A program made the translations under genes and the position numbers. From the NCBI GenBank assembly GCA_973895155.1, contig OZ316896.1, forward strand, positions 3,448,738-3,512,737: 64,000 nucleotides of DNA, written 5' to 3'. The notes beneath the pieces were generated by a model. The model ran no database searches. It saw only the letters and a program-made list of their open reading frames with translations, and was not told the origin of the DNA. Each line of letters opens with the position of its first letter. The first letter of the stretch is position 1. This DNA comes from Marsupella aquatica (lineage: Eukaryota; Plantae; Marchantiophyta). Positions 21,521 through 44,169 of the stretch are shown piece after piece.

Positions 21521-21638
21521 TCGTGATGAAAATAATTGATATTAAGAGTACAATTTTGCAATCTTAAAATGCATGAACAAAATTCCACAATTAAATTTGG
21601 CAGGGACAAGAACAACAAAAGCACACTTTTGACCTCTT

Positions 21639-22340
21639 TGTTGAGTATAGACGACAATCGCAACGGCAAGCCCATGAACCATCCAACGTACAAGAGTTGA
21701 CATAGAGAGATACGTGGTTCACCTGCACATGAGGCTACGTCCATGAGAACACACAAGAGCTTTATTGCACTCTAGGCCGACCGGCCATACCAAGCATCCA
21801 TAGCACAGGCTCTCCCTATCTCTCAACTAGCTCCATAACAATGAGCCTTAGTCCCCAAAGAGGCTGGCATTAGCCCATGCTATATACACAACAACACTAG
21901 GTGGATTGCATGATTGAGGACTACCATTTTAGTCCTTTTTTCTCCATAAGAAAGGACTCCATGAGCACTTAATAGGATTCCATGAGCACTGAATGTGCCA
22001 TATATCCCTTGATGGCTAGGATTGAGTAGTTGAGATTGAAAGGTTAGATCTTGCATGCCAAGTCTTTTGGAAGTGTGTCCACACTTTTCGAAAGTCCTTA
22101 CCTCTTGGAAGTGTGCCCAACATTTGTGGAAGTGTGTCATGAAGTATTTTTTTACCTAAGATGCTAATCTTGGTCGTTGACAGTCCTTGGATTAGTGAAA
22201 GGACTGGAGACTTTTTTGCCTCCTTTGGTAGTTCTCAATCATGCAATCCACCACTACCGCTAACCTTAGCTAAGTCTCAACCCGAGTTAGCCTAACTATG
22301 GTTAGCTCATGAGTCACAAGACTAAGAGCAATACCTAACA
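21639..22340 (-). repeat. 3' LTR of copia-2 (contains a MITE)
   Basis: TGTTGAGTATAG...CCTAACA matches 41046-41573. Confidence 0.93.
21900..22252. mobile_element. MITE, 353 bp, ~26-bp TIR, 4-bp TSD ACTA
   Basis: GGTGGATTGCATGATTGAGGACTACCA ... TGGTAGTTCTCAATCATGCAATCCACC. ACTA on both sides. Absent from the sister LTR. Confidence 0.92.
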
Positions 22341-22548
22341 AACTCCCCCTTGACTCTTGTCTTGGGGACTGGACTAATTGCTACCATGTGGAATCCTCAG
22401 CGGGAAGTTCTAGACAATCACCTAAACAGGTCTCCCCCTAAAAACCACAAGGGTTAACTAAGAGTTAACTAGAACTAAGCCGTAGCCAAATTGGAATGAG
22501 TAATCCATATACAAATACTCACAACATTGCTAAATAACTCTACTTGCA

Positions 22549-23628
22549 CTACAACTGCAAAACCTGCAAAGTAGCACGCTGTCTTGAGAAACTCTCCAAA
22601 GGAATCACTTTGGTAAAGACATCAGAGGGATTGAGCTTTCCATCAATCTTGACTAGCTCAAAAGTTTTATCAGACACTGCTTGCCTGATAAAATGGTACC
22701 TAATATCAATGTGCTTCACCCTGCTATCCATCACCTGGTTAGCAGCCAAGTGAAGAGCACTCTGACTATCACAGTTTAGAGACATTTTGCTATGCTCTAA
22801 CCCATCTCTGTGATCAACCTGTCCAACAAAATTGCTTTTTTTGCCGCTTCTGCTGTTGCAACATACTCTGCTTCTATAGTAGACTGAGAGATACACTTTT
22901 GCTAGGTAGATTTCCAATTGATACATCCTCCTCCAAGAGTAAATACATATCCAGTTGTAGATCTCCTTGTATCAAGATAGCCTCCATAGTCAGAATCTAC
23001 ATAGCCAATCAACGTCCTATCTGATCTAGGATCAAATAGCAATCCATAGTCCAGTGTTCCCTTCAGATACTTGAGAATCCATTTCACAGCTTCTGAATGT
23101 ACCTTCCTTGGATTTGACATGAATCTGCTAACCTTGCCTATTGCTAGGGCCAAGTGAGGCCTAGTACAAGTCATCAAATACATCAGATTGCCTATTGCCT
23201 TCTCATAAGGAATCTTAGCCATCAGACCTTTCTCCACAGCATCCGTAGGAGAGAATGTCGATGATAACTTGAAATGTGAAGCTAAAAGAATACTCACTAG
23301 CTTACAATTTTCCATGTTGAATCGTGCAAGTACCTTCCTCGCATACTTGCCTTGATTCTAGCACAACTGTCCAATATCAGAGTTCCTAAAAATCTCCATC
23401 CCTAAGATCCTCTTGGCCTTACCAAGATCCTTCATCTTGAATTCAGAACTCAATTTCGCCTTGAGTTTGTCAACCTCAAATTGATTTTTACCCACAATTA
23501 GCATGTCATCCACATAGAGAACCAAAATGATGAAACCAAACACATCATTCTTGACTGATTTTGTATACACACAAGGGTCTACACCATCCTTGTAAAACCT
23601 TGAGCAAACATGAAATCATCAAACCGTT
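22549..23628 (-). pseudogene. copia-2 RT/RNase H remnants
   Basis: LVLYVDDML, MKDLG, TRP.LA, GYVDSD..G, KHIDIRYHFIR, with stops and frameshifts. Confidence 0.9.
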
Positions 23629-25095
23629 TGTTTTTATGACACGGGTAACGTGTCACCCCGCGTGTCACTTAACAGAACACGGGTCCTAGATTAGGACTTA
23701 TACTGTCATTAGGACCGTAGCTGTAGCGTAGAGTAGTACAAATAAGTGGTGGACCTTGCCACCCAGTGCCCTCACCAATCCCAGCACTCGCGCCTAAATG
23801 CCCTTGGTGCTCAAACGCCTCCACAGAATATCTCGAGCAAGCACCCTAGTGCCCCTTGCACTACCAACGGCCCCTCCCATATAAAGCCACACTTGCTCTC
23901 CTACACAACCGCTACTCAACGGTCCTCACTATCTACACAAGCAACCAAGCATCTCGGTAAGTATCCTTCTGGATCTAGAACTTGCCAAGTCTAGCATCCT
24001 AACTCAAGCTCAACAGACGTTGGTAAATAGGTCAGCGATAGGTCCTCCCGATGCCATAAGCCAGAACCAGAACCCACGCCCACTGTTCGTCCAGGACAGC
24101 TCCTTCCTTGGGTGCGGCCCGGGTTCCCCCTCGTACCTATCCATCACCAACTGACCACCCTGACCTTAGGACATGCTCATGGCCCAAGTAGCGTAGCTTG
24201 TTCTAAAGCTTGTCCCAAGCTTGTCTCAACACGTCGGGACCCGAACGGCCCTGACTCTAACACCCACTCTCGGTTCGCCCCACTGATGGTCTAGGGACCG
24301 AACACTCTTGGGACTCAACCTCCACACCTACTTGGCCTTGCCTCCCCAACGCAAGCTCCCTTGGGAGGCTGAACGTAGCTTGGCTGCTGTTCGACAGGAT
24401 TTGGCAAGCGGGCGAGCTAACACCCGCAAACCATGAGAACCCATGGCACCCCCAGACCCATGGTTTTCCTTAGTGTTGCGACCGCCGCGGCTCACAACTT
24501 TGGCTCGCCCTTAGCCCCCAGGAAGACATCACTCCCCTCATATATGCTTCAAGAGACCTGCCACCCCCGGACCAGCTTTGGTCCCCAAACATTTGGCCCC
24601 CAATCCGGATCCCATCGCGCATAATGGGCGCGCCACCAATTGGCAATGCCCATAACTTCATTGGTAGGCATCCGCAAGCGGAGTGCCTTACCCCGTTGTG
24701 ACCGGGCCGACCCCGTGCTCTGCCTAGGCCCTCAGGTCTGATCGCCGCTTGGGGCCCCCGACCAGCCCAAACCTGGATCAGGTTACAACTTACGCCCCAA
24801 GCGTCCGTTGCCAATGGCATCAACTCCATTGGCCTTGGGCCCAAGAGACGCTCACTCCCAAGCCCTCAAAACTTGGAGCCCTTCCGACGGTCCGGACGGC
24901 CATCCTTGAGCCCGGCCCATTTCTCCTTGACCCTACCAGCCATAGGCTAGTCCATGTCCTTAGTGTGTGTCCCCAGCTTAGCCCCTTGCCTTGCTAGTGC
25001 CACATCTCATTGCTCACAAGTCTCCCCATGCTAAGTCCTCCCCGGATGGCCTATCCAGGCCTGGACCATAAGGGAGCTCGTCGTCGGAGTCAGCA
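23629..25095 (-). mobile_element. Solo LTR (~1.47 kb) of an unrelated retrotransposon, replacing part of copia-2 pol
   Basis: Minus strand runs TGCTGACTCC...CATAAAAACA. GC-rich and non-coding. Copia coding stops at KLESK on one side and resumes at KRFDDFM on the other. Flanks CCGTT/ACTTG do not match. Confidence 0.65.
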
Positions 25096-26863
25096 ACTTG
25101 GACTCCAATTTGGATCAAAGCTGGGAAGGTGTAAGTACATAAGCATCACATCCAAAAATCCTCAGATGTGAGTAATCTGCCAGACACCCGTACCTCATTT
25201 CAAATGACGTCTTGAATCCAATAGAACTTGATGGAGAGAAATTTACCAAATAAGCTGTAGTGTTGACAGCTTCAGCCCAAAACTCATGTGGTAAGCATGA
25301 TTGACTCAACATACTCCTTGAGCGTTCCAATAGTGTTTGGTTGAGCCTCTCAGAAACACCATTTTGTTGAGGAGTATAACTTGTTGTGAGATGGCGTGTA
25401 ATCCCCTGCTCCTTACAATATGTTCCAAATTCCCGGAACTGTATTCACCGCCGTTATCCGATCAAAGATATCTCACCTTATGACCAGTCTGATTCTCAAC
25501 TTGGGCTTTCCACTGCTTAAAAGTGGCAAAAACATTAGACTTATTGTGTAGAAAGTATATCCACACATACCTTGAGTAATCGTCTATGAACGTGACATAG
25601 TATAACCGTCTAGAGTGTGAGGGAGTAGGGGGTGGTCCCCACACATCACTATGTACATACTCAAGTACCTTCTTGCTGGTGTGAGTTTCAACTCCAAAGG
25701 GTTTCCTGTGCTGCTTCCCAAGCACACAATGCTCACAAAATTCTAACTTACAAGATTGTAAATTAGAAAGTAATTCCTTTTTTTTAAGAACAGTCAAACC
25801 TTTTTCACTCATGTGGCCCAAATAGCAGTGCCATACTGCCGTCTCCTCATGAGATAAGGTTACATTGGCTTCATCACAAACTACATTGCCCTCCAAAATG
25901 TATAGATTTGTATGTCTCTTTCCCTTCAATACAACTTTAGTACCAGTTGAAACCTGAAGGACACCATTAGCAGAACTCCACCGATGGCCATTTACTTCTA
26001 AAACTCCAAATGAAATGAGATTTTTCTTCATGCTGGGAATATGTCTCACATTCCTCAACGTTCTCACAACACCATCAAACATCTGAAATCTAAGAGATCC
26101 AAGTCCAACTACTTGGATCCATTAGATCGCGATTTTCCTCTGGATTTAGATCTGCCCCGTGATGTAAATCTAAATCTGTTCTACCCATTCGTGCGCTGCA
26201 CTGGTCTTCCATGGTTCACATTCAACGCAGTACCAAAAGAAGATGTTGTGTGTGCTTGATCCAGCTTCTTCTGCATGTGCATCATCAAACAGTAGAGAAC
26301 TCACCACCTCATCATACGAAATGGACTTCAAATCTTTGTACAAGAGCACCTATTTTAAGCCCTGATAAGATGGGGGTAAGGAGCTTAATTAGCAGAAGCA
26401 AGGCCTTATCCTCATCTTCAACTTCCTTACTCAGGTTTGACAGATCCACCGCCAGGCTGTCAAACTCATCCAGGTGATCCTGCAGCCTCGCCTGTAGCTT
26501 GCTCCCTTCCTTGAGCCTGAGGCTCATCAAGAGAGACTTCTTGTACAGTCGGTCTGATGCATCTTCCCGATAGTACTTCTCTCTAAGGGCCTTGAAGAAT
26601 GATGTGCAATCTGCATAATCATCCAGCTTCTTGATGATATGAGGCTTGAGGTATAGCATTACCGCATTGACAACAATCACCTGCTCTTGTCTCCACTGCT
26701 TCACATAAATCTCCTCCTCTCCATCATACTGCTCTCGCAAAGAGAGCATATGAGCTAAGTCCATGGCCCAAAGAACACCCTTCACTTGCTTCTCCCAAAG
26801 CAAGTAGTCAGTACGGCCATCGTACTTCTCTACCTCAAACTTCACTCCTTCGAATCTCGCCAT
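25096..26863 (-). pseudogene. copia-2 gag, GAG-pre-integrase and integrase remnants; zinc knuckle and protease core deleted
   Basis: VEKYDGRTDYLLW gag, DEDKALLLL, WH..LGHMSEKGL, VHSDVWGP, FIDDYSR, FWAEAV motifs. Confidence 0.9.
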
Positions 26864-28968
26864 CTCTCTCTTCTTCCCAACTACCAACAGGTCTAGTAGT
26901 AGAACAGTTTTCTCCATTGCACGCCGCACCGGTGATCGTACCGGTGTTACTTGTTCCTCCTCAAATGGTATCAGCTCTTCCTCAGACTCTCCGTTTAACT
27001 GTTGCAAACCTAAAGCTCCACCGACGTCAATTCTTCCAGTATTCTCCGAGTCACTCTGAATATGAGAAAATCATGAAAAAATGTCTTTTTTCAAAAATTC
27101 TCATAAAACTCAAAATTTAACACCGCCGCGTAGCCCACAAAGCTAGGAGTCCAACGTTGAAAGTCAAAATCAAAATTGAAAATTGACGGAAAAGTTATTC
27201 AAATTTTGGTTGGGGTGGGTAAAATCTTGGGAAACTCCCCCGTTTTAACCACCTTAGGGAATAACCAAAATACCTAGTATAACCCGTCATCGGAATTGAG
27301 ATTTGATTGGTGCGCCGCATTGCTAACTTGAATGGCTACGACCTCGCCAAAAAAGAACCAAAATAATTATTGTTTGGCGCACAGAATCTTTGTTGGATGG
27401 CCAAAAAAAAGCTCTATGTTTTTTGGGAATAATCCTGCACAGTTTGACAGGGCTCAAAGGGGGCCGGTCCCCCTGTCAAAGCGGTTAAAATGGAGGGCGG
27501 CATGTCCCGGCACAAGGGAGAACCAATAAGAGGGAAAAAAAGGTAAAAAGTGGGCCGTAAAGGGGGTGTTTAAGCCTCTTACCAAAAGGTGGTATAAATG
27601 GTCAGGGATACATAGTGGGCGAGGAGTAGGGGGCATAAAGGGGGTGGCGTGCGTGCAGCTACAGCTACGTATGCAGTTGGATACAGGGTGGCGGGGCATA
27701 CCATCTCCGTGCGTTGGAGAGGGGCGCCAGCAGGAGGCGGTCGCAAAGGGGCAGGGCATGGCAGGGCCGATCGGAGGGAGAAACCAGCCCCTGGTGAGCG
27801 CACGGTCACGCGTAAGCGCCGGCCGGCGCTCGTGACCAGCCGAAGGGAGAAACGGGGGTGAAAATGGGGGAGTATCGGGGGAAACACGCTGACCAACCAA
27901 ACAAGAAGTGTGACGACCAAACGAGAAGTGTGTTTTGATTTTCGCAAAAAAATGGCAAAAAATATCTTAAATTGATATCAAAAACACAAATTCTTAGATA
28001 TATGCAAAATTGGATCCAACATCAAATTCCAAATTGAGATACTTTTTGACAAAAAATGGAAAATCACTAAAATCTTGGATTTTAGAACAATTGATCCCAA
28101 AAATATTTGTCAAACAGAAAACCCATAAAACAATGATTTTCAAGTCCTATTTCCGCACACTAAATCAATTCGCCCGGAAAAACTTGAATAACACAAATCT
28201 CCATTTGACAAGCAAATCATTCAAACCCAAAATGGGATACGCCGTATCCCGTTTTAGATTCATCCGTTGAAAATCAAACAAAAACACGCTAAGTTGATCA
28301 TTTGGGGCCTTTAGTTATCATATCGGCTAAACTAGATTTGAATGTTTATCAAAGGTAAAACGATGTATTGCATAAACTTTACTAGCGACCACGGTTGACC
28401 AACGCAGTCAATTAAGTTAACTCAAGTAGATGGTTGGACATATTGTAGACCGTTTATTTCCCAACCGCCAACCTCCATCTAACAAATTAGAGATATGAAT
28501 ACCAACAAGGATCCATGGATCCCATTTTATTTCCCAAGTCCAAAAAGAACTTAGCCAAAAGTCGGGGTGAATACGAAATGGGATCCACGGATCCCATTTG
28601 GTATTCACCCTTCCAAATTTGCCATTGTCGAACCCCCGCGTTGCTAAATCAACGTTTGAATACCAATCGGGATCCATGGATCCCATTGTCCGATCCAACT
28701 CAAGAAACAAACAATTTTGGAATACTCTTTTCTCTCAAAGATCAATTTTCTTCTCGTTTAAAGATTTGTACGGACCAATGAATGGAAGCCACGTGGACAC
28801 ATTCCCAAAAACTATATAAGAACAAGCTTGCATATGATTCTGTCTTCAGTTTTTACAACTCATTTTAGGTTCTCAAATAGTGAGTCTCTATTTTCCTAGA
28901 TTGGAGTCACCGGAACGTTCCACTCCCCATAGGAATCCTTAGTCTTATAGAACCTTGATACTATCTCA

Positions 28969-31900
28969 ATGGCGTCTTCAGGTGACAAGTCTATTTACAG
29001 TTCTGATGCATCTTTGCCAGATGTTGTTCGCAAATTCATTCCATCTCGTTTGATGAAGGAGCTTCCAGTTTCACAAAGAGTTTTGTCAGAGATGTCATTT
29101 TCATCAGATTCAGAGAGTTCAGGGTCTGATTCCGAGTCTGGGAGAAGTGTTGTTGGAGCTCCAACATCTTATTATGTTTCTCCAAGTAAACCACTTATAC
29201 AACATTTGCTTGGGAGAAAAGCCACTGTCATACCCTTAGGTCAGACTAGCTCACCGCAAACCCCTCCAGATGCACCCAAATGTCGGCCTCAGTTTCTAAT
29301 GCCAAGAACAATGTTGCCATGTAGGCCCGCCAAGAGATCTCCTCTAGTTTTCCCGATGTCGCGTCCTCTTGGAGTCCAGATAGCTTTGTCTAGTGTGCAA
29401 TCGTAGTTTGAGCGAATGAGAAGTTCGACGGTGCTAGAAGTGTCGGCCGCACGAAGAATATCCAGAGGGATCCCTACTCGAAGTTTGTGGAATGGAGAGC
29501 GGGAATTGCCAATTTCATCTCCTTCGCTACCAAATTCCATTAGTGGAATACCAAGTGGGATCCGTGGATCCCATTTGGTATTCCCTCCTGGAATTTTACT
29601 AAATGGCGAGCCAAAATTGCAAATCGAGCAACCTTCGCCTACTGATTTGGTGGGAGGAATGCAAAATGGGATCCGTGGATCCCACTTGGTATCCCCTCCT
29701 GGAATTTTACCAAATGTTGAGCCCGAATTGCGAAGCAATCAAACTTCGTTAGTCGCTTTGGGCGGAGGAATGAGACAAGGGATCCGTGGATCCCACTTTG
29801 TTTTACCCAATGGAAAATTGTCAAGCGCTGCCATAGAACCACAAGTGGGGCAGCTCTCACTTTGAAGTCCAAGTGGACGAATACGAGTTGGGATCCACGG
29901 ATCCCATTCTGTGTTCCCATCGGTGATTTTGCCTAGTGGTCAATCAAACGTCAACTTTGGGCTTCGAAGCCCTTTGGCTTGAATGCAGTGTGAGGTTGCT
30001 GGATCTTTGGTAGCCCTTTGGCTTGAATGCAGCATTTGTGATCTCCTTCCTCCCTTTTGATCAAGTGTCACAAATGCTGCAGGTGTCCATCAAATTCCTC
30101 ACAGATTGTTGCGAAGTGCGTTGCCACAAACTTGCCCAAAAAATTCAAGGCTAGAGGAAAATTGAAGGTTGTTCAGAGACTATTCAATGGTCAGGATGAT
30201 CCGTCTAGTCGAGAGACACCAAGGCAAGGAGTACATTCTCAGAGACAAGTGGGGAATACTCATGTAGAAGCAAGGAATATCGGTAGAAGATTTCAGAGAA
30301 GAAATCTTCGGGTACCAATTTCTTTTCCAGAAGAATCTAAAGAAGAATCAGAGGTACCAGCCAATGCCGGGGAGATGCCATAGGGACTGTTGAAATCTCA
30401 AATATTGTTAAAGAGGTCCTTGGTCGCGAGAGTGCTCACGAACCAGTCTTAGAAAGTGTAGAGAGTGAAAGTAATACCGGAGAAGATCAAGATACTTTTG
30501 TTTTAAGTTCAATGAGTCCCATGGAAAGTAGTGGAGGAGTGAATTCTCCCGACACAATACAGGATAGAGTAGAGGTGAGAAGACCAAGCAAAAAAATTAG
30601 AGACCAGATGATTTGTAAAGATAGGCTTATCAATACGAACTTGAAAAAACAAAAAATTAAAGATATTTTTAAGTATTCCTGTTGTGACAAGTTTTGCTTG
30701 AGGTCTTTAGGTCTAGAAGAATGTTGGAAACAATGTAAGTATTATTTTGGTCTCTCACACTCACAAAAAAGCATTCTTTTGCGAGGATGTATTATGAGTA
30801 ATTATAATACTTCCCGTGGATATAGTGTGAATGGACAAACTATTTGTAGAGGAGGTTCAAGAAACTATATTCCATAGGGAATAATAGGCTACAATCCATG
30901 CAAACATGTTCACCAGGATTGAACGAGATACATTTTGTAAGGAAGACTCGCCTTCATTTCTCAACTTGGTGGAATGGTTGAAAGATTTCTTTCAAAAAAA
31001 CATGGATAGTCTTCCCCATAAAGAAATTCATCACTTGCCAGACAATTAGACAAAGCAAGAGATTCATGAAATCTTTCTCGCCGAAACAATCTTGCGGGAA
31101 GAGCAATATGTTACATATTCTTATTTCTTGCGCATTTGGAAGAAGAAGTTTTCAAATGTTTGGATTCCCAAAAGGAGTCGTTTTTCCACTTGTTGTCCAT
31201 GTACCGAATTCAAGGCTCTTCGAGACAAAGCAACGACAGAAGAAGATAAAAGTAAGTTCATTGTAACCTTACATTTGTGTCTAACTAAGATAGTGATAAG
31301 TTAGACACAATGATGAATAGATAATTTATTGATTACGCATGATTGTATTATTGCAAGAAAGTATATCAACGCTCTTATGGAGCATCGAAGAGTACAATCA
31401 CTCGAGAGGATGAAGTTGGCAAAGCATCGAAAGAAATGCTATGATGAACCCAACAAGTATTTGGGTATTTGTATTGACGGTATGGATCAAAAGAAAACTG
31501 AGCTACCACATTTTATTCGATGTCCAAAGAACATGGATGAGAAATATTTCATCCCTATACATGTTGTGGGTTGTCTTATCTTTAATAGAAAGCTTGCGGC
31601 AAAGTTTTTCTAACTTACCCCAACATCCACAATGATGCAAATCTCACCATTCATGTTATTCAAAATATTTTGAATACATGGGATGGGATATTGCCACGGG
31701 TATTATATCTTCAATTGGATAATACCACTAGGGAGAACAAGAATAAGTTCTTGATGGCTTATCTACACATGTTGGTAGATTTAAAGGTTTTTGACAAGAT
31801 AAAAGTTGGCTTTTTGTTGGTTGGTCATATGCATGACCAAATAGATCAGATGTTTAGCAAGTTCTCATCTAGATTAAATAAGCATAAAGCATTTTGCTTA

Positions 31901-32952
31901 GATACTCTTGTGGATATTCTACAACGGACATATTCTCCTCAAGCAGATGTAATTTTTGTGGATGAAGTTGTGGACTTCAGAAAATTTGTGAATGAGACCG
32001 ACCAACCAAATGACAACAGAGTTTCAGGTCGAGTTTTGAGAGATCTCAACCTCATAACTTTTCAAAGACAATTCAGATTCAAGCGAGGCATTGTAGATGA
32101 CAACGAAGTGACCATGTTTCATGGGAAACATCTATCTACAACCTTTGATTGGGGAGACGTGGTAGCATTTGTCAACTACATCCCCACTTCAAGAATGTGG
32201 GTTGTAGCACAAATGTCACTAAAGTCAGCAAAAGGTGTTGAACGGGATGATGATTTGATGGACTCAAATGGTGCATTATCCATTCTGGTGAAATATCAAA
32301 AAGCAATTCAAGAGGGATTCAATTACTTTGACGATGAAGATAAACTATGGTGGATGACATTCTTTGAGAAGCAAATGATGTTATCAAAAACCACTTAGAG
32401 GAGGGTGAGTGGTTATTTGAATGGGTTTGGCCACAACAAAATGAAAGGCGTGGACTTGGTGGTGTGTCAAAAAATCAGATTTCGAAGTTCGAAGATGTTG
32501 ACCCAACTCTAGTTGATAAGGTTGTAGGACCACAGAGGATTATTTACTCAGGTCCTCGGCGAAAGCAACCTGAACTTGGAGATTTCAAAGATATGAAAGT
32601 GAACAACAAATGGTCAATGATATGCGTAGCAGCACACAAAGATCCAGAAGGCAAGTTATTTTGGATGGCAAAGGTGTCAAAGATTTTGACAAAAAGAGAA
32701 AACATTCCGGAAAGAATCAAAATCACGTGGTACACAACTGAGGCAAGTGCTGAGACTGCAATTGATGGAAAATATTTTCCAGAAAAAGATAATGTATCTA
32801 ATAGACTTTGTCAAGATGAACTTGTTTTGTCGTCAACAGCAATATATGCATACAATTTTGCGCTTTTGACAAATAACCAAATAGTAGCAAAAACAAAGAA
32901 GATTATAGAGGCTGCTATTTTAGAGCGAGGTTCTGTATCTTCAGAAGATTGA
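28969..32952 (+). pseudogene. DDD/E transposase, Sola-like (DUF7869-type), frameshifted, with a repetitive N-terminus and a Tudor/PWWP-like C-terminal segment
   Basis: YSCCDKFCL, WKKKF..V.IPKRSRFSTCCPC, ICIDGMDQ, LYLQLDNTTRENKN and FLLVGHMHDQIDQMFS motifs. FWMAKV...ITWY in 32464-32952. Probable intron near 31251-31356. Confidence 0.75.
29557..29905 (+). repeat. Four 16-bp palindromes GGGATCC-NN-GGATCCC at a 111-bp period
   Basis: Starts at 29557, 29668, 29779, 29890. The first three are read in frame as GIRGSH in ORF 29416-29865. Confidence 0.9.
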
Positions 32953-32966
32953 GTTTCATTTACTAA

Positions 32967-33926
32967 TTAGACTAGTAATGCTGATACATGCATTAATTTA
33001 ATAACTCTATCTCTGATCACCTTTCGCAAGTGGCATGCTTGGGTGGGGTTGTACCAATCTCTTGTAAATAAAGACTCTGCGGATATAGATTTTGAATTAT
33101 TCCATTGAACTCTAATTTGATCCATGTTGTGTAGGACAAATAAACCACAATCTGTGGTATTTGGTTGTTGTGGCACCTGAAAAAAACATGGTGTATTTTA
33201 GTATAATTCATAAATATGTTTTTCAACCCAAAAAGAATTAAAAATCAAATAAATCACATACCTTTGGATTCCATATCTCCATAACACCCAATGACACTTT
33301 TCCAAAAAATAGTTCCCATTCTATTGTGAAATATCTGCAAGTCATTGAAAGCGATTCCTTAGTCAGTAGCATTTATAATCACATGAATTAAATAATCTCA
33401 TTTGAAAAACAAATAGTAGAAGATAAAGTTAAGTCTTTCACCTTTTCAGTGCCGATTCAATTACACAAGTTTCATGTAGACCAACAAGTGAGTCTAGATG
33501 ATACATTTGGATCAAAGATTGAGATCGATCCAAACATATGACAACCAAACTCCAATGGCCACTCATGTGAATTGGCATAAGAATAACCTCAATCTTGGAA
33601 AACGGTGGCTTGTAATAAGCTCGCATTTTCTATAAAGATTCTTTAAGGGATTCATGTGTTGGTTCTTTTTCAATCCTTGAAACCATCCAAGGATAAAAAA
33701 AGGAGGATAACGTGTTTACCATTGGAGCAAGATCTCCCTGTTCTTCTATTTGGGACTTTGGGTAAAATTCCATAATTTTGTCACCCAAATATTGGTCGGG
33801 TTCAAGTTGTTCCAATGTTTCTTGATTGAGGAGATGACCAACAAAAGGATTGTGCAAAAATCTATGAAGAACACTTTTCAATTCAATAACCTCCTTTGAT
33901 GGATCCTGCAAGGACATTATTGTCAC
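32967..33926 (-). pseudogene. Ulp1/SENP (C48) SUMO-protease domain; last exons of the cargo gene
   Basis: YLGDKIMEFY, LSSFFY, MPIHMSGHWSLVVI, YHLDSL, PQQPNTTDCGLFVL give an intact H-D-(Q)-C set. GT/AG introns near 33441/33336 and 33262/33176. In-frame TAG at 33630. Confidence 0.88.
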
Positions 33927-34236
33927 ATAAGACTTAACATATAAATCTATTTCAATATTTCCGGAAGTTCATATACATTTTGGGGGAAATCTCAATTGCA
34001 GCAAACTAATCTCAAAATAATCTCTACACCTCAAGGAATGAGCCAAGATCTAATGCCGGAGCTTCTGCTTCCTCTTCCTCCTACTCCTCGTCTTCATCTG
34101 CATCATCATCATTCTCGGCCGTGGTTGTAATGATGCAAGGTCCGGTGGTGAGAGTGCTTGTCATACCACCAATCGGTGGTTGTATCTCAAAACTCATCGG
34201 CCCTGTACCCTCCTCAATTGCTTCCTCATTCAAGTC

Positions 34237-35145
34237 TCATGATTCATCTAGCGTGACTAGTCGAGTCTGGATACAGTCTATCTGTTGAGCACTCAACTCC
34301 ACAGCTGTAACATGTCGCTTTGCCAATGAAGCCCCACACGAAGTGGACCCACTTCCGGCGCATAAATCAGCAATCCAATCTCCTTCTTCACTAAAATGCT
34401 TGATGAACCAATCTGCAAGGGCTATCGGCTTCTGGTACGGATTCACTATGTCCCCTAAGGGTGTTACACATTTTTTGGTAACGCAAGGTACCTTGATGAT
34501 GTTGATTCTTTTCTCATCATGCTCAAAATTGTACATTTCCCTGGTCCTGATACCACCTTCATTATAATATCCAATGGACCAGTTCTCAAACGCCCAAGCT
34601 AGCCTATTCCCGGAGGGGTGTGCATGTACATTTGGCTTCTCCCAAATTCCTGCCTCAACTCCAGCGTTGCAAGTCTTTCCCAAAGCATTCAAAACGGAGA
34701 CACTTTGTTGCAACGAATGAATAACAACAAACCTCCACATAGGTGAAGTAGTCACCTTAGCAAAACATTTCACCATATCAATAATATCTTTCTCCAAAAA
34801 TGGAACTTCATCATTCTCAGAGCCGACGGCATTGAATCCATAAGGAATGTCGGCGATTACAAGTGTGTAAGGCCGTTTCTCCAAGAACCTATCAAGCGCC
34901 TGGACATCTCCACAGTGGAGAGTATAGTTGATGAAATTTCCATCAGAATTTTTCCAACGGTGGTCACTTGATTTTGCTTGAACAATGTCGATGCCAATCC
35001 GACAATTATAATTCTCAATAGCTTCCTGAACCATATTCTTAAAACCAGGGGGGATAATATCGGAACTAAGCTCCTCCTCTACCGTCTCCTCGCCATCATT
35101 TGACACTTGAACCATTTTGTTCTTCTTCTTCAAGAAGGCTTTCAA
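34237..35145 (-). CDS. Beta-class N6-adenine/N4-cytosine DNA methyltransferase domain (exon of the cargo gene)
   Basis: LHCGD, VIADIPYG (DPPY-like motif IV), IWEKP, NPYQKP, then EGDWIADLCAGSGST...VTAVE (motif I). This is the beta permutation order. AG acceptor at 35147-46. Confidence 0.88.
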   Translation of the reverse strand: MKAFLKKKNKMVQVSNDGEETVEEELSSDIIPPGFKNMVQEAIENYNCRIGIDIVQAKSSDHRWKNSDGNFINYTLHCGDVQALDRFLEKRPYTLVIADIPYGFNAVGSENDEVPFLEKDIIDMVKCFAKVTTSPMWRFVVIHSLQQSVSVLNALGKTCNAGVEAGIWEKPNVHAHPSGNRLAWAFENWSIGYYNEGGIRTREMYNFEHDEKRINIIKVPCVTKKCVTPLGDIVNPYQKPIALADWFIKHFSEEGDWIADLCAGSGSTSCGASLAKRHVTAVELSAQQIDCIQTRLVTLDES

Positions 35146-35510
35146 CTACAAAACATCAAGGCACCAGTCAGAGTTAAATGATAAAACTATGCATTGAATA
35201 CCAAGAGGGATACCAAGTATCCCATTTGGTATCCGACTAAATAAATCCGGTGAATCATGCTTCTAACCCTCAAACTCCAACTTGAATCCCGAATGGGATA
35301 CGGGGTATCCCATTTCGGATTCCACCTAGGGAAAATCAAAGGAACAACACTAACATAGCCAAACCAGGGATACCTAGAGAAAAAGAAAGAAACAACTTGA
35401 ATAGAGCCAAAATTGATTGTGAATCCCAAATGGGATACACGTATCCATTTTTGAATTCAACCTTTGAAAACACAAAATGAAAACATCCAATGCAAGCTGA
35501 ATCAACTTAC

Positions 35511-36443
35511 CACATCCGAGAGTTTGCCACTCCATCTTTCGAGCTCCGCAGACTGGGTCTCCTTGGGAAACATCTGTTTACAAGTCGCCAGACAATTGCA
35601 CAATTGCACAAACAGTTTACTAATCTTCACAAGCTTCTTGTAACTTTTGGCCTCTTTGGCCATCTGCTCTAGACTGATCATTCGATCCTTAACTCGAAGG
35701 AGAAGGGATTCCAAAAACCGGTCCTGCTCAATCCCTTGGATCCCTCTCCAAGGTGTCAACGCTAGCCCATTTGCTAGCTTGTTCAAAGGTTTCACAATGG
35801 GCATGGCCTTTTGCTTGGACCCTTTTTTCACTATTTTCACAGGGGATTTTTGTTTGTTCTGCCCTTTGATCTCAAATCTGTTCCACATGTCAAAGATCTG
35901 GTCTTGGAGGTCCCAAACTTTTCCAGATCTAAATGATATCTGGAAATGTGGTTCGTGCTTCTTCAATGTTTTCCCAACCCCTAGAATGAAGCCATCAAGA
36001 CACACCTCCGAAGCACAGGCCTCTCTAGTCTCTTTCATTTTTTGCATACCTCTGGCAATGAAGACCTTATGCATTGTTCGGATTTGATCGATATTGTTCA
36101 TCTTTTTCTGATAATCCTGGTCAATATTGTGTTGAATACTGAGTTTCTGGACGTCAGCCCTTGTAAGCCCTGCATAGACCCAGGCTTGAAGTTTGTTGAA
36201 GATTTCCCGACCATAAGCCTCAAACAATTCTCTCTTGGCTAGCGCTCCGTGATTACCCCCAATTACCCGGTATCTCCAGGTCGATGCCTTGGCCGGGTCC
36301 CAATCTTCAACGGACGGACAATCTTCAGGGATAACAAACAGCACAAATGGCGTCGTGAAATTTGTTGGATTCAGCTTCATCAAAGTCTTGATATTTTTTA
36401 CGTGCAAACGATCAACAGTCTGAAACCAACGTGGAGTTTTCAT
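35511..36443 (-). CDS. ParB/Srx-like domain exon, spliced in frame to the MTase exon
   Basis: VD..HV..IK..M, PFVLFV, YRVIGGNHGALA (ParB 'y.vidG.HR..A'-like), AWVY, L...HN. Donor GTG|GTAAG at 35511/35510 is phase 0, matching acceptor 35145. Confidence 0.65.
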
Positions 36444-36522
36444 CCTTCATGTCATCGACCAGGAGGAGGTTTGTTGTTTTTAGAATGACTGTGGTCTTCT
36501 GAACTCTTTTTGTCTCCATTAA

Positions 36523-37467
36523 TCAAGACACTTCTTCCCTTAGAACTGACGTCTCTTCACGTTGTAGGGCTGTAGTCAGTTCATTCGTTGAATCTTCCTT
36601 GCTCTCAACAATCATCGGACCCTTCCCCTTGGATGCGACGGATGGCCCACCTTGTGAAGTTGGAGGAATCTCACCTACCGATCTCAAAGGTAAAGGAGGA
36701 GCTGTTGACACTACTCTCTTCTGGATTTCTCGTCGATCCAACTTAGTCTTCTCTTTGGCAGGATCTTCTGAGACAGTGGCACCTGATCCTTCCCCAGATT
36801 TTCCAACAGATGTTGCTGGTGCTTTCTTCTTGTTCTTTGGCTCGGAAACTGCCTTCTCTTTTGTTGTGGTTGTCTCCGAATCCTCCACTGTCCCAGACGG
36901 ATTAGTTGGCCTGTGTATCTTCAACTTCAATGGAGTTCTTTCCGGACCCTTAAAGTCTTCTCCAACCACTGAGCGATACACAATTCTGGTGAAGTCCTGC
37001 ACGACCTTCCACAACGTTAAGGCATAATTCAAGCACCAAAAACAAAATGTATCCACATCAGGCACCTCCGCCACAAGCTGAGTGATTGAGTCCTCTGGAA
37101 ATGTATTCATGGAGACTCGATCAAGTTTCTCATAGTTCAAAACCAACATAGAGAAGGTCTTGTCAACACCAATGTAAAGAAACATTGGTACCATCTTAAC
37201 TTTCTTGGTTTTTGTATCAACGATGTCCGCCTTGGCTGTGTCAATCACCAATCCTTGGTGGCAATGCTTTTTACCCTTCATGACAATCAACCATAACGCT
37301 GCCCAGCCTGAATATGCTCGATGAAGATCAAGCTCACGAGCATCACGCAAATACCACTTGTTCCTGAGGAATTTCTCCTCAACATAGAGATCTTTTTTCC
37401 AGATCTCATTGATGATGGCTTGTCGGGAAGAGCCAGAAGAACCCAAAGCACTTGACTTGTTCGACAT
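36523..37467 (-). CDS. N-terminal segment of the cargo gene (unknown domain plus K/S/T-rich linker), separated from the ParB part by a stop and a frameshift
   Basis: 314-codon ORF, collinear with and just upstream of the ParB-like ORF. Confidence 0.55.
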   Translation of the reverse strand: MSNKSSALGSSGSSRQAIINEIWKKDLYVEEKFLRNKWYLRDARELDLHRAYSGWAALWLIVMKGKKHCHQGLVIDTAKADIVDTKTKKVKMVPMFLYIGVDKTFSMLVLNYEKLDRVSMNTFPEDSITQLVAEVPDVDTFCFWCLNYALTLWKVVQDFTRIVYRSVVGEDFKGPERTPLKLKIHRPTNPSGTVEDSETTTTKEKAVSEPKNKKKAPATSVGKSGEGSGATVSEDPAKEKTKLDRREIQKRVVSTAPPLPLRSVGEIPPTSQGGPSVASKGKGPMIVESKEDSTNELTTALQREETSVLREEVS

Positions 37468-37546
37468 TTTGCGTAGAATAAACCACCTGTTAGAATTTCA
37501 AGCCTCATATGGTCCAATTAGGCAACAAGTCCATAATCCAATGTGT

Positions 37547-37945
37547 GAATGCAAGATGGGATACACGGTATCCCTCTTCGTATCCAACCGCTCCTATTTC
37601 GGCTCTTTCAGAGAGAAAGCATGAAATCTTGGAGATGAATGCGAAATGGGATACCGCGTATCCCACTTCGTATCCAACCGCTCCTATTCCAACTCTTTCA
37701 TAGAGAAAGCATGAAATCTGGGAGATGAATCGGAAGTGGGATACCGCGTATCCCACTTCCGATTCAACCCCTTAGTTGCGCTGAGAAATATGAAAACCTT
37801 TGAAGATTTTCATGTTGAATGCAAAGTGGGATACAGGGTATCCCACTTCGTATTCATCCCCAAATCTCAGTGCGTTTTCCTTCTCAAACAAGAATTTGGC
37901 CAAAGTGAATGCGAAGTGGGATACGCGGTATCCCACTTCGGATTC
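37547..37945. repeat. Five-unit, 90-bp-period array of a ~39-bp palindrome GAATGCGAAGTGGGATAC-NNN-GTATCCCACTTCGNATTC
   Basis: GGGATAC cores start at 37558, 37648, 37738, 37828, 37918. Confidence 0.92.
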
Positions 37946-38709
37946 ATCCTCCCAATTTGTCTCAAAATGGAGTGTAGACTGTATTCTCACCTAGTGAAGG
38001 ATTGTCTGCCGAGCGAATACAAATGTCTATAGATATCAAGGATTTGGAAAGAGTGAGAGGTGGCGCAAGCGATAAGAAATGAGCGTACCTTTTCGGGGGG
38101 GGGGCACTCTTATTTATACTTTTTCCCCTCACTACGTAACAAGGGTCGGAGTTAGTTACTCGCAATAGTCGTATGAAATACTCAAGGCAAATCTAGACTT
38201 ATGCATTACGACCATTTCATTTTACCATGTTTGAAGAATGTTTTACGGAAAAATATAGTGGGGTAATCCGATATGGGATACCCTCATTCGGATGCTATTG
38301 GCAACGAGAAACTAAAGGTTTGGAAGCCAGCCAGGGCAATATGTTGAGAATCTGAGTTTGGCCCAAAGATGTGCCACAAAAGATAGTAAATATTGATTCA
38401 TGAAAAAAAAATTTACAAGTAGCTCACCATGAGCACACATAAACATGAATGATAGAACATGAATCAAGCTAACCCTCAAGTCTGTCCATATATTTCCACT
38501 AGGCTGGCTTGCTGATCTTTCTCTAGATTTACCTAGTCCCTTTGAAATCGACTTAGTTCTGATGTCGAAAACAAACCAAGGAAATCAATTGAGGGAAGAT
38601 TCGAAATTTCCATCCTAAAAAAGTTTGCGAGATGAACATTCTGAAGAGGGTCTCCATGGGGAACGCTATCAAGCAATTCATTTAATCCCTCAAACTGGCT
38701 TCGTGCTAG

Positions 38710-39036
38710 TCAAAGGAGACCCCATACTCGTGTACAAACTACAAGTTGGTTCCATTTTTTTGAGGAGGATCCCAGCCAAATCATTTCTTTTAGTCGGCTG
38801 AGTCTGTCTTCAGCGGAGATCTTGGAAGAATCAAATTCATCCTCGATGCAAGAAACTTTCAAAATTGGCCATATGAATGTTTCAACAATCTCATTAGGAA
38901 GTCCATCCAAAAGTAGTCCGGATTCTCTTTGGCCCTGTTTCTGCTCAATTTGTTTCTTCTTCTCTTTCTCAAATATGGTCGCTAACCTTCCGAAGATAAG
39001 GTTTTGAGGGATGGCCATTCCAAACCAGTTTGACAC
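38710..39036 (-). CDS. F-box-like small ORF (probably truncated)
   Basis: LLDGLPNEIVETFIWPIL ... LGSSSKKWNQLV matches the F-box LP.EI...I / L..V.K.W..L pattern. Confidence 0.55.
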   Translation of the reverse strand: MSNWFGMAIPQNLIFGRLATIFEKEKKKQIEQKQGQRESGLLLDGLPNEIVETFIWPILKVSCIEDEFDSSKISAEDRLSRLKEMIWLGSSSKKWNQLVVCTRVWGLL

Positions 39037-39258
39037 AAAAAAAGAAATACCTCGAGTGATAGAGAAAATGGAGAAGTTCTCTTTTTGAAGAACCTACAAA
39101 ACCGGGATCAAAAGATTCAATTACTTTATTTCTTTGATCAAAAGAAAAACATCATGTCTAAATCTTTGTGAGCCAAGAATACTGAACAAGACTCCAAATA
39201 TTTGTGAGCCAAGAATCAAAAAGATTCAATGGGAAGAGTTAACCCAAGGATCTTCGTT

Positions 39259-39582
39259 TCAAATTCGACAACACAAGTATGCCAATCGATGATACTTGTT
39301 TTGATCATCACGACAATAATTACACGAAGAATCAACAGAATGCAGACAACCACTCAAATAAATTCTTGACCGAATTGGAACTCCTTGCTCATTCTTTTTG
39401 CAAAACTCAATTTGGAGCGGATTGAGACTATCTCGAGGATCTACGCCTCCCATCCAAAGCGCTCCTAATCCAACAGGAAGCACTTTGAGTTCAACTAATC
39501 TCTTATACAATCGATGGGCACGTTTATCTTGGTTTTGAATCTGGATTGTCATTGAACTCACGGTTGAAAATGTAAGTCTCAA
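39259..39582 (-). CDS. Small Cys/His-containing ORF of unknown function, inside the element
   Basis: 107-codon ORF with C.H....C..C...CC; no family recognised. Confidence 0.3.
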   Translation of the reverse strand: MRLTFSTVSSMTIQIQNQDKRAHRLYKRLVELKVLPVGLGALWMGGVDPRDSLNPLQIEFCKKNEQGVPIRSRIYLSGCLHSVDSSCNYCRDDQNKYHRLAYLCCRI

Positions 39583-41045
39583 AGAAAGCTAAAGCTTTAA
39601 TAGTTTGTCACTCCAAAATGGCGGGCTCGAAGGAAGCAAGAGCTTTTGTCAAAGTTGATTAGAACCTAGCCTGCAAAACCATCACCAATACTTGAGATAT
39701 CTTTTGCCATCGCAAAAAAGCTATTGCTGAATACCCAAAGGGATACGCCGTATCCCACTTCGCATTCAAACTTTGCCTTTCGGACCTAACCTGATTGATA
39801 TTCAGAGGTTGAATACCATATGGGATACCGGGTATCCCACTTCGCATTCAACATTGAAATTTCCTGCATTTTCAACCAAGAGCTTCTTAGTATGTAGAGG
39901 TTGGATGCGAAGTGGGATACCGGGTATCCCACTTGGCATACCTATTTATAGTTTCCCCCCGACCATGGTCAGTTTCTAACCATAGTTTCGTCGTAGTCAA
40001 TTAAAAGTGACCATTAAAAGGAATCCTCTAGGAATATTCTTGATGGGTAAACTGTACTCACCCCTTTTACTGCGTTTGTTGGTTTTTTTTTTGAAAATTG
40101 CGGTGGGATCCGAAATGGGATACGCCGTATCCCTGCTTCGGATTCAAGTCATTTTTTCCCGTTTTAAAAATAAAAAATCTGGGTTATTAGAGGGAATACT
40201 AATTCAGTATCCAACACATTTTTCCTTTTGAATTTTTTTCCGCTGCGGGCAAAACGAGAAGTCCGTCACTATGTTGGGAGTATGAGGGGGGGCGGGTGTG
40301 TGTATACACACACAAGGCACAAATGACCCCCTTAAAACGGAAAAAATAACCCTAAAGCAAAAAATTCCGAATTCTCACCTGACCAGCCGCGATTTACATG
40401 AAGAAAAAAATGATCGCCAATGGGTAAAGTGCCAAAATTTCACCGAGAAGGTCTGCTAGCTCCATAGTGGAAAAACTTTCTGTCGTGTCACACTCACTCC
40501 ACGTCAAGTGCCAATCCCAGACTCAAAACAACCCCCTCGCCGCGATCAAACCGTTGAGCTATAGCACTTCACGTTTCTTTCTCCGAGTTGGTCGTCACAA
40601 AGAGAAACCCGATTCAGATGGGAACAAGCTCCATAGCTTGTGAAAAAACCTGAACGCTTCCTTCACTCGTCACGACGCACTCGGTAACAACTTGACAGCA
40701 ATTCAGCTACCAAAATGATCAGCTTGCTTCAACCTCCAACTTGAGCTACAACATGCGACACCTCCCGCACTGCACAGCTCACACCATTGAAAACACAAAC
40801 TCTGTTCTCTCCCTAGAAAAACCGTCGAACATGTATAAATACGATGCAAACTGTGATTCCTTCGCACCATGGATACCGCTCAGCGAGTTCTAACCACCGT
40901 TAGAGAGCCCTCTCACTAGCCTATCCGCTCAGCCACACACATTCAAGTTTCATGCAACGAAACTCCAAATGTAACACCAACAATGAACGCTAGAAAACTG
41001 TCACGAAAAAACCTCATCACCTCCCAGACATGCTCTGATACCAAT

Positions 41046-41573
41046 TGTTGAGTATAGATGACAATCGCAACGGCGAGCCCATGAACCATCCAACGTACAA
41101 GAGTCGACACAGAGAGATACGTGGTTCACCTCCACATGAGGCTACGTCCACAGGAACACACAAGAGCTTTACTGCACTTTAGGCCGACCGGCCATACCAA
41201 GCATCCACAACACAAGCTCTCACTATCTTTCAACTAGCTCCGTAACAATGAGCCTTAGTCCCCAAAGAGGCTGGCATCAGCTCAGGCTATATACACAACA
41301 GCACTACTGCTAACCTTTTATTATTTTTTTAATTTTAATTTTTTAAAAGGAGAAATCTGTGAAACCCCACAGAAAGGGAAGAGTCAACCACAATAGTTGG
41401 GAAGTGTCAGCCACAACAGTTGAACCCAAGACCTATCAGTCTCAATTCAAGTGAGCTACCATAAAGTCATGCCTCTCTGGGCAGCACTACTGCTAACCTT
41501 AGGTAAGTCCTAACCCGAGTTAGCCTAACTATGGTTAGCTCGTGAGTCACAAGACTAAGAGCAATACCTAACA
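41046..41573 (-). repeat. 5' LTR of copia-2 (contains a SINE)
   Basis: Matches 21639-22340; adjacent PBS GCTCTGATACCA. Confidence 0.93.
41318..41481 (-). mobile_element. tRNA-derived SINE, 164 bp, 19-bp TSD
   Basis: TSD CAGCACTACTGCTAACCTT at 41299-41317 and 41482-41500. A-rich tail on the minus strand. A-box-like TGACTTTATGG and B-box-like GGTTCAACT. Confidence 0.8.
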
Positions 41574-44169
41574 CTCTCCATTGGCATATTCATGAGTACG
41601 TTGGTCTTCTTTGTCAAACATTCCTTCTGCCTCAATTTCTTTGTACAAATCATGGCTCTCACTTGACAAAATTTCTCTAGGTTCCATGATTCAATGTTGC
41701 TATGTGCGCCTGTATGAGCGTCTTCCAAAGTTGAACAAAAATGAACAGGTGAAGTTTGATTTTTCTATTTTTTGGCTATAGTACATCTCAGTCTATGTAT
41801 GGGTCCATAAACAAAAAGACTTGTTTGCTGAAGCTCTCTTGTGTTTGGCGCTTGAAGATACACCATTGATTGAAAGAAAGGATAAGCTAAGTTTCGATAT
41901 ATCTTCTCCTGCATGCTCAATCACATATTTACTCCCCGTGAAATTTGGGAGCTATCAAACAACTTTCTGTCTTTTCTGTGTCCCATCCCTCAAAGTGGGT
42001 GTTGTTAACTTTACATGAGGCTGGGCACGTTTGCTCCAGCCTGGTAGTATGTTTCCCGGGTTTATTAATTTTAGATAATGAAGTGGCCCCTGGTGTTGCT
42101 TTGGAAGAGGAGAGACTGAACTGCCCTCACGGTTTTGTGAAGCCCCCCTCGGAATACAGACATACCATCAGCGTCAGGTTTTGGAAGACTTAAAGAACTC
42201 AAAACATCACACATATCATCATTGATTTTGTCCAAAAGGGGAAATGTACACATGCAGTACTAAGGCAAGTAGGACAAGCAAAATTTGCCAAGATGGGCCC
42301 CACTCTATGGGCCTGCGTATGCAGGGAGAGAGAACATTAATTGATAAAGGGAGAGGTCAAACAGAGAACTCTAAGCGCATGTCTATGAAGGAAGAAAAGA
42401 ACGTCAGTAGATACTGGGAGACTGGGAATTACTCTGTGTTTGAATGAGTATTTATAAAGTTTCAATGGTTTGCTTGTTTTTTGGGGTCCACTAAAAGTGT
42501 CGCCTAACCTAAACCTGCAATTTCTAACCCTGTACACCTGATATCCGTGGTACTTTACACAAAAAAATGTATTCTTTACTTATAAATATAGGAAATGAAG
42601 TATGATGTATATAACATTTTATGTGGGTATTTGATTTAGGGGTTGTTTTTAAAGAAGTTTTTACAAGGAACAATGTTGTATCCCAAAGTTGTCCAGAGAG
42701 CGAGAGACAAGCTTCCCCCTCTTCTCCTGGTGCTCCTCTTGTGCAGTGCAAATAGGTCAAAAACTCTCCTACTCTGGTGATGACAGTATGATAGACAGTG
42801 TGGAGTTCTTAAATGTTTTAGTGTACGTAATCATCAAGTCAGAGAACTTACTCACGTTTTTGTTCAGATTTTGCCCAATCAAGATATATGTTCAGATTGA
42901 TAACCTGCATGGCATGATGCGATATTGCGAGGACTTACTGACCTTGTATGCCATCCTTGGTTTTACTATAGTGGAGCTTGTTCCTTGGTTCTATCCGGTC
43001 CCAGTTGAATTGACATCACTGTAGAACCCTCGTATCTTCTCCTTTTCTACTTTCATGGATGGGGTTGTACATAAAGCAGCGTTTGATTTACATCAATGAT
43101 TAGTCAACAACGTTTCTCCCTCAGTCTGCCAGGAGACGGGATGCCAGGCTTAATTTCATTGGCGTTTGCTATCCTGATATATAAGAGTGGCAGAAAGTGT
43201 CATTATATTTGAATGAAAGGTCGAATATATGTAAGTGGTTCTAATTAATTTTGTGCGAACCCAGTTTTTCTTTCTGGCAATTGTTGGTAGACATGTGACA
43301 CGCTCTCGAACCTTCTCCCTAGAATTTCATGTATGTTTTTCATAGAGCTTTTCATGCTGCAATTTTTGAGAGGTGGGGATGACATCTGCAAATTGAAGTC
43401 AAGAAGATGCCAGAACACTTCATGTTCTCAGCTTTCAAGTTGGTTTTCTCTCGTTTAGGCCGTGCTACTGTGAAGGCTTGAGTCAAGCTATCGAAAATTT
43501 ATGACTTTGCAATCCATCAAAGTTGCACTAAAGTTAGCATGCATCCGCTTTCAAGGGAATTCCGTGTGTGCACTTTTCCATTATCATCTCACGGCCTTCG
43601 CGAAATTTTGTTGGACAGCAAGTAGTTCATGTGTGATGTTGACACTTCATGTTTACTTTGTTTCTCTGACCGACATGTGTTCCAGACTGGAGACTTTTTG
43701 GATGTAGCAATTTATCGCTAAGCCCCACACATTGATTCTCATCAATACATGTCACGATTCAACAGATTTACGTCGGTTGATTTGTCGCTCTGGTGATACG
43801 CTTTGCGCTTGTAGTAGCGTTAGTATGTTAAAGCTATTTGATCCGTTCTGGGAGCCCAGTACAACAATTTCAAATGAAGTGCAATTGTACCTGCTCTGAA
43901 CAGTTGTTGGTATTCTTCTTATCAGCAAAATTATACCCTGGCTATAATTCGATCAGTTCGTTCATGTAACTGTCCTGCGTTCTACTCTGAGGATCTTTTG
44001 TTTAATATAACAGACTTTTGCTCATTGGGTGAGTGTTTGTTTCAACACTCCCTTGCACCAGGCAATAGTTTGGTCTGAAATTTAATTTTGTTACTAGCTA
44101 CCTGTTTGCGAAATTTCGGGAAGAAGAAGGGACAAACGAGAGGACAGAAGGAAAAGACAGAGAACTCAT

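Follow-up and report, generated by a model that had tools for sequence, protein, structure and literature searches.

A decayed Sola-like transposon of the liverwort Marsupella aquatica with a ParB-like and methyltransferase gene and a candidate address for proposed self-marking

Background

Can a plant transposon carry an enzyme that marks its own DNA, together with the address to which the mark is sent? This question is raised by a stretch of 64,000 nucleotides of the liverwort Marsupella aquatica (assembly GCA_973895155.1, contig OZ316896.1, positions 3,448,738 to 3,512,737 of the forward strand), here called the window, in which all positions are counted. An earlier note had placed in it a giant transposon with terminal inverted repeats (TIRs), joining a Sola-like transposase to a spliced gene for a ParB-like domain, a methyltransferase (MTase) of DNA and a Ulp1 protease of SUMO (small ubiquitin-like modifier). 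Our analysis favors the reading that this is a decayed copy of a Sola-like element, whose accessory protein is predicted to dock on palindromes of its own element and to write N6-methyladenine (6mA), and that the mark would make the element resistant to host silencing. We give this reading a probability of about 0.5. The features are listed in Table 1.

Results and discussion

Accessory gene and transposase

The accessory gene is spliced, lies on the minus strand and runs tail-to-tail with the transposase gene. Its second exon matched the Pfam family PF01555 above the cut-off (E=2.3e-8). For a model of this exon (predicted local distance difference test, pLDDT, 57) the best fold match was CcrM (E=5e-11), followed by N4CMT and RsrI (range 5e-11 to 1e-8), and the sequence match to N4CMT was weak (E=0.024). 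The phage MTase families PHROG 498 and 67 matched with E=9e-17, the best phage record being 25% identical (E=2e-3). Motif IV precedes motif I, as in beta-class amino-MTases, and the assignment first made from the motifs DIPY and DLCAGSGS was upheld by these profile and fold matches. Two stops (34239-34237 and 34083-34081) interrupt the exon.

A D-x-P-Y motif is found in 100 of the 125 aligned MTase domains, and SPPY in none of the 125. According to the available part of PMC8885841, SPPY is found in most N4C enzymes and DPPY in bacterial N6A enzymes. With motif IV mostly D-x-P-Y and never SPPY, the predicted mark leans to 6mA over N4-methylcytosine (4mC), and the MTase would write 6mA on the element. 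All 16 aligned close homologues retain the D, P and Y of motif IV, and 15 of the 16 also have the D-x-x-x-G-x-G motif for S-adenosylmethionine (SAM). Together with a ratio of non-synonymous to synonymous substitution rates (dN/dS) of about 0.07, this conservation speaks against another view of the same exon, namely that the MTase fold is a non-catalytic DNA-binding or scaffold module and that the protein occupies its motifs as do the VANC proteins of VANDAL Mutator-like elements (MULEs). That view can draw on the DIPY of the window, which is not DPPY, on the 25/125 homologues that deviate from D-x-P-Y, and on the MTase domains borne by DIRS1 elements, considered inactive in the available text of PMC4738411; we regard it as quite improbable.

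The first exon starts at ATG 37467 and is longer than first described. Its N-terminal domain (about 37467-36900) is of no known family, gave no Pfam match, and is 19-22% identical to its counterparts in L002 and L005, two of the six close metagenome loci introduced below. It is followed by the ParB-like region, where the family motif is GGNHGARA or GGGHxREA. For this region the window exon had no match in Pfam, its model (pLDDT 65, predicted template modeling score, pTM, 0.48) had none in Foldseek at E<=1e-3, PHROGs had none for the ParB-like exons, and a search for longer homologues of the exon, which is a weak test, was empty. Several weak signals agree, each under its threshold. HTH_ParB matched in L005 with E=8e-4, under the Pfam cut-off, and the family profile matched Spo0J weakly (E=0.15). 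Atlas scores for the region were 0.94 for DUF3723 and 0.91 for ParB_N. In the wide structural search with VIA, 5 of the top 15 entries belong to the ParB family. KorB heads the list (Z 5.5, 97 aligned, root mean square deviation, rmsd, 4.0), and the fourth place is held by Spo0J (Z 4.8, 163 aligned, rmsd 4.1); Z values of this size are common, by the tool's own warning. The domain is therefore probably ParB-like. Among the three domains proposed in the earlier note, the MTase and the protease matched their families (PF01555 and PF02902), whereas ParB stayed under threshold.

The plus-strand transposase also stood up. Its core matched DUF7869 (Pfam PF25273, E=1.2e-41, about 31604-31996), a domain that we take to be linked to Sola transposases, and its motifs DGMD, LDN and GH-x-H-D presumably resemble theirs. 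The gene is 45-71% identical to its counterparts in L001, L003 and L006, has a low-complexity 5' part with 111-bp repeats, and probably contains an intron near 31252-31357. No relative of it was found in PDB, its C-terminus has no Pfam match, and no MULE family was matched in Pfam, which sets the element apart from the VANDAL MULEs with their VANC domain. The term DUF7869 was not found in the literature retrieved for it.

Relatives, linkage and selection

Homologues of the MTase exon at 54-72% identity number 23, and 656 representatives were matched at E<=0.001. A metagenome scan with the single protein found nothing, but a scan with the alignment gave 11 loci from 49 stretches, six of them close (L001-L006, 53-58%). 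L007-L010 were counted as distant, having no transposase in view and no palindrome. A scan of viral contigs for homologues was empty. The candidate L011 was dropped, being a bacterial polyketide synthase (PKS) locus with a match of 28 amino acids (aa).

The transposase gene lies tail-to-tail with the MTase gene in 4/6 close loci (L001, L003, L005 and L006), which repeats the convergent layout described for the window. The other two, L002 and L004, run out about 0.3 kb past the MTase stop, and the linkage is present in 4/4 loci reaching far enough. The gene order expected in other copies recurs in these relatives. The ParB-like exon stands upstream of the MTase in 5/6 close loci, and the GT-AG intron between them has the position seen in the window (35511>35145; identical in 5/5 relatives spanning it), and in the homologue P0032 a contiguous open reading frame (ORF) runs across the ParB-like/MTase junction. 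Of 147 new MTase representatives, 24 are also matched by the profile of the ParB-like exon, and annotated proteins from Chara, Ginkgo, Adiantum and Riccia are among these. In the relatives, the ParB-like and MTase parts therefore form one predicted polypeptide. The window gene has the features of the accessory proteins of the Ectocarpus type, a ParB-like part with an amino-MTase on the strand opposite to the transposase, with the ParB label weak.

The dN/dS was about 0.07 for the MTase (L003/L004), 0.06 for ParB and 0.08 for the transposase (L001/L006), values restricted to unsaturated pairs, since the remaining pairs of loci are saturated at synonymous sites. These substitution patterns and the gene order show transposase and accessory gene, at the level of their sequences, to travel together under purifying selection. 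A midpoint-rooted tree, made by a quick method from 83 MTase domain rows that each span 170 or more profile positions and leaving out 14 listed cluster members, shows no donor.

Chara braunii has the annotated protein P0060 (GBG86584.1), of 1825 aa with two tandem ParB-like + MTase units, and four further Chara proteins of the family were among 20 representatives looked up; this suggests an expansion of such proteins in Chara. Distant, uninterrupted ParB-like + MTase ORFs of 900-1000 aa occur on metagenome contigs of 3-10 kb (P0111, P0134, P0180 and L010). These may be good intron-free enzymes for assay.

Palindrome arrays

Twenty palindromes of 16-17 bp were found in two types, GGGATAC-N(2-3)-GTATCC(C/A) (n=13) and a GGGATCC-N2-GGATCCC-like form (n=7). 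All 20 matches of the window fall inside the element, whereas 20 Markov controls gave 0-1. Sixteen lie in introns, in upstream regions or close to the ends; the repetitive 5' part of the transposase ORF holds the other four. In the relatives the pattern recurs, with 36 matches in 5/6 close loci (L001-L004 and L006). L005, which falls in a separate subclade of the tree, has none of these palindromes; it carries instead 12 copies of CCGATCCAAACATCGG, outside its coding exons (L005:375-4750).

By analogy, this layout is that expected of a ParB/parS-like or VANC-like address, and the palindrome is a candidate site. Arrayed in introns, promoters and ends, it would be recognized by the ParB/HTH (helix-turn-helix) part much as parS is by ParB. 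The idea of self-marking is plausible and here gains a candidate cis site.

The same arrays bear on a second explanation, in which the enzyme is active and directed to its own element, but its mark serves to gate transposition (through licensed ends, self-recognition or target immunity) instead of countering host silencing. Adenine methylation gates the ends of bacterial IS10 and Tn5, palindromes occur near both ends besides the introns, and the genes are linked in all four testable loci. Most palindromes, however, sit deep within the element, in introns and upstream regions, as VANC motifs are laid out, and the capture of Ulp1 points toward chromatin factors. We consider gating unlikely.

Ulp1 exons and the proposed mechanism

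The protease exons matched PF02902 (E=1.6e-12 and 5e-4) and SENP7 (E=3.8e-7). The H-D-C triad of Ulp1/C48 proteases and the Q are all present, so that the C48 protease with surviving catalytic motifs was recovered as described. Joining 35145-34030, 33905-33442, 33334-33262 and 33176-32967 gives an in-frame product of 621 codons with 3 internal stops. The frame is thus kept through the splice joins, but their phases are 0, 0, 2 and 0 rather than all 0. Exon 1 adds a stop (36525-36523) and a frameshift near 36430, and the window copy is indeed disabled by a few stops and a frameshift.

In the reading that we favor, some or all transcripts of this lineage would have a captured Ulp1 domain spliced onto the C-terminus of the accessory protein, and this domain would take SUMO off silencing factors located at the palindromes, as in VANC/KAONASHI (KIU). 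We lean somewhat towards this spliced MTase-Ulp1 fusion as a candidate, from the exon sequences. The main competitor is a separate or passenger gene of one lineage: the MTase would end at 34024, and Ulp1 would start from its own ATG or not be made, an arrangement that is compatible with the other explanations. The proposed donor GAG|GTGTAG is weak, its read-through gives V-stop at 34029-34024, and an in-frame ATG stands at 33917, just 5' of the Ulp1 exons. Against a separate gene are the same strand, the AT-rich spacer of 124 nt, the textbook-like acceptor and the exact phase 0, as well as the multi-copy Ulp1 bin in 4/4 DNA runs and the intact catalytic residues. Two runs each contain one contig of low depth in which Ulp1 and MTase sequence are joined through deletions, with 22 letters on the shorter side; these contigs hint faintly at a further locus with the two linked.

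Several points weigh against our reading. For the fusion, Ulp1 was found in 0/207 homologous proteins (44 of them also scanned by Pfam) and in none of the four relatives that span the MTase-transposase gap of 0.3-0.5 kb, and the homologues stop at the place equivalent to the proposed donor. The earlier ParB-MTase-Ulp1 fusion is accordingly retained for its first two parts, joined in relatives, and lacks such support for the third; a separate Ulp1 has an appreciable chance, short of even. For the address, the pattern was derived from the same sequences in which its matches in window and relatives were counted. A CACTA element in the window also has palindrome arrays and no ParB-like gene was detected in it, so the arrays may simply be transposase sites. 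For the reader, neither Pfam nor the PDB-profile and fold tests bring the ParB assignment up to threshold. The canonical ParB motif is an arginine patch, which GGNHGARA replaces, so that CTP clamping appears doubtful. For the mark, the target base is not fixed by motif IV, and exceptions exist.

In a fuller version, Sola transposons of land plants would have a complete self-addressed epigenetic writer, made up of a reader like that of parS/ParB for a palindrome specific to the lineage, an active 6mA MTase and a deSUMOylase fused to them in the present lineage. This would amount to a second, independent origin of anti-silencing of the VANC/KIU type, adding a mark where that type removes one; it would range from Chara to Ginkgo and would supply plants with transposon-localized 6mA. 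We put this forward as tentative.

Element ends and copy number

The 12-bp inverted repeat (IR) TGTGACGACCAA begins at 27909, its complement ends at 40599, AAG stands beside each arm, and the pair occurs once in the window. The whole window holds 152 12-bp IR pairs, one of them with a 3-bp flank, and 3/20 shuffles of a 25-kb stretch also yield an IR pair with a 3-bp flank; judged on the whole window, the combination is near chance. Within the two end zones it is the best pair with a 3-bp flank. Sola transposons have a target site duplication (TSD) of 4 bp (PMC10741241) and TIRs of at least 11 bp. This copy has a perfect 12-bp IR, and at 40565-40576, after a 13-bp offset, the left end is matched once more, at 11/12 letters. 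No convincing TIR with a 4-bp repeat appeared in a scan of both end zones. Since AAG has 3 bp and is not a Sola TSD, the IR and the AAG of the earlier note, which do exist, mark candidate ends. The true ends may lie elsewhere or be decayed.

On the left, the guanine-cytosine (GC) fraction drops at 27900 from 0.64 to 0.29. Single-locus contigs of the DNA runs stop at 27919-27951, with the left break near 27892, and a 20-bp tandem unit from about 27890, where the contigs already turn shared, includes the left AAG. On the right, single-locus contigs cover about 40185-40520, which counts against the candidate end. The left end is near 27890-27930, and the right end between about 40190 and 40600. 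An alternative boundary, the 11-bp direct repeat 27919-27929/40252-40262, agrees with the contig breaks and is not known to fit any TSD class. On either side of the multi-copy core, the stretches 27500-27890 and 40215-40490 have single-locus contigs over them in the DNA runs and share the short direct-orientation motifs TGACCAGCCG and, at the borders, AAACGAGAAGT.

Every one of the 23 interior bins, with that of Ulp1 among them, had a depth 6- to 366-fold over the single-locus flank contig in 4/4 DNA runs, these values being summed depth and not copy number. The element is multi-copy. Sibling contigs have sense codons at two stops of the window copy, and with the multi-copy depth this indicates that the element family outlived the window copy.

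Table 1. Features of the Sola-like element and its host element (positions in the window)
Feature	Position	Strand	Remarks
Host Ty1/copia element	21638..41579	-	Long terminal repeat (LTR) pieces 21638-22346 and 41045-41579, 92% identical; gag 27070-26312
Left-end zone	27890..27932	+	Two 20-bp tandem units; IR arm 27909-27920; AAG 27906-27908
20 palindromes	28234..40133		Clusters 28234-28684, 29557-29906, 35207-35448, 37558-37934, 39740-40133
Sola-like transposase gene	28970..32952	+	Broken by frameshifts and stops
Ulp1/C48 exons	33905-33442, 33334-33262, 33176-32967	-	Introns phase 2 and 0; one internal stop
Proposed MTase-Ulp1 intron	33906..34029	-	Phase 0; GAG|GTGTAG ... TTGCAG|; 124 nt; GC 0.31
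Exon 2, beta-class amino-MTase and acidic tail	34030..35145	-	Motif IV DIPY before DLCAGSG
Intron 1	35146..35510	-	Phase-0 GT-AG; 3 palindromes within
Exon 1	35511..37467	-	N-terminal domain, low-complexity linker, ParB-like domain with GGNH motif, helical HTH-like part
Third reading region, decayed	38500..39588	-	Multi-copy like the remainder of the element; cysteine-rich piece upstream
Candidate right end	40565..40602	-	IR arm 40588-40599; AAG 40600-40602

Genomic surroundings

The window is transposon-rich eukaryotic DNA, with copia elements, one CACTA element and a cupin (germin-like) gene. The insertion site of the Sola-like element is the 5' leader of the Ty1/copia element at 21638..41579. 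Within the Sola-like element, the third reading region, which by eye alone we take to be F-box-like, has no Pfam match and no meaningful match in PDB.

The CACTA/EnSpm element (10100-19850) has Transposase_21, DUF4218 and DUF4216. It carries two further ORFs, one with a SET domain (14139-15077, E=3.5e-5) and one of 412 aa (16394-17629) that is unexplained, and it holds 24 matches to a TCCGA...TCGGA palindrome, clustered at its ends and in the interior. Chromatin-modifier cargo is thus found on another transposon less than 10 kb from the Sola-like element. The arms of the L005 palindrome (CCGAT...ATCGG) resemble those of this CACTA element. An inverted duplication of ~5 kb (44170-49170/58660-63280) is ~80% identical over 3.8 kb, with parts up to 98%, and an LTR retrotransposon and the germin-like gene (57246-57974) lie between its arms. 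Finally, a NIF/FCP1-like phosphatase ORF (7210-7863, plus strand, E=1.4e-16) adjoins a copia element.

Comparison with known systems

If the enzyme is active, the family gives a concrete enzyme and an address for 6mA on plant transposons. For testing it offers unbroken natural MTase exons with the conserved motif, and some of its members belong to plants with annotated genomes (Riccia, Adiantum and Chara). Because the candidate site changes between lineages, reader and site could be swapped in such tests. If the fusion is true, the Ulp1 add-on would be a repeated recruitment of deSUMOylation by unrelated counter-defence proteins of transposons. A literature search found no land-plant ParB + MTase transposon and no MTase-Ulp1 fusion in titles and abstracts; Repbase, subscription journals and preprint supplements may hold such cases.

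The following comparisons hold for the available parts of the cited texts. Bacterial-type amino-MTases are known in eukaryotes from Marchantia DN4MT1 and bdelloid N4CMT (bioRxiv 10.1101/2021.02.12.428880, PMC8885841). Those are host genes with a (T)SPPY motif that make 4mC, and N4CMT marks transposons for silencing, whereas the window MTase has DIPY and is transposon cargo. With the phage beta-class MTases (PHROG 498 and 67), CcrM and RsrI it shares the order of motif IV before motif I, the fold and the motifs, but it is intron-split and has a long N-terminal part and an acidic tail.

The Plavaka genes PAG2 and PAG3 of Bostrychia are also transposon cargo with a PF01555 MTase and a ParB-like domain, and tandem inverted repeats were proposed as ParB sites there (bioRxiv 10.1101/2025.02.11.637652). 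They differ in the EnSpm/Plavaka transposase and in having MTase + SET and ParB + 2-oxoglutarate (2OG) oxygenase in separate genes, and the available text is without Ulp1. VANC and KIU of the VANDAL MULEs recognize short non-coding motifs of their own family, some with captured Ulp1 (PMC13317346). In contrast, VANC is reported to induce hypomethylation and belongs to non-TIR MULEs of eudicots, and no MTase or ParB domain is described in the available part of that report; by analogy, the window element resembles them in layout only.

The closest described counterpart is Sola1-1_Ec32 of the brown alga Ectocarpus (PMC12477816). Like the window element, it is by description a giant Sola element with a cargo gene on the strand opposite to the transposase and with ParB-like and MTase parts in one protein; this accessory gene encodes 1104 aa, and self-modification was proposed for it. 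Its best blastp match is the moss transposase Sola1-1_PPa. It differs in its host, its size of 21.5 kb, its 282-bp TIR and its 4-bp TSD, and the terms Ulp1 and C48 are absent from the main text on it. A ParB + MTase transposon cargo and the idea of self-marking are thus already published, for Ectocarpus Sola1-1_Ec32. What is new here is the land-plant setting, the Ulp1 add-on that parallels VANC/KIU, and a conserved candidate binding site.

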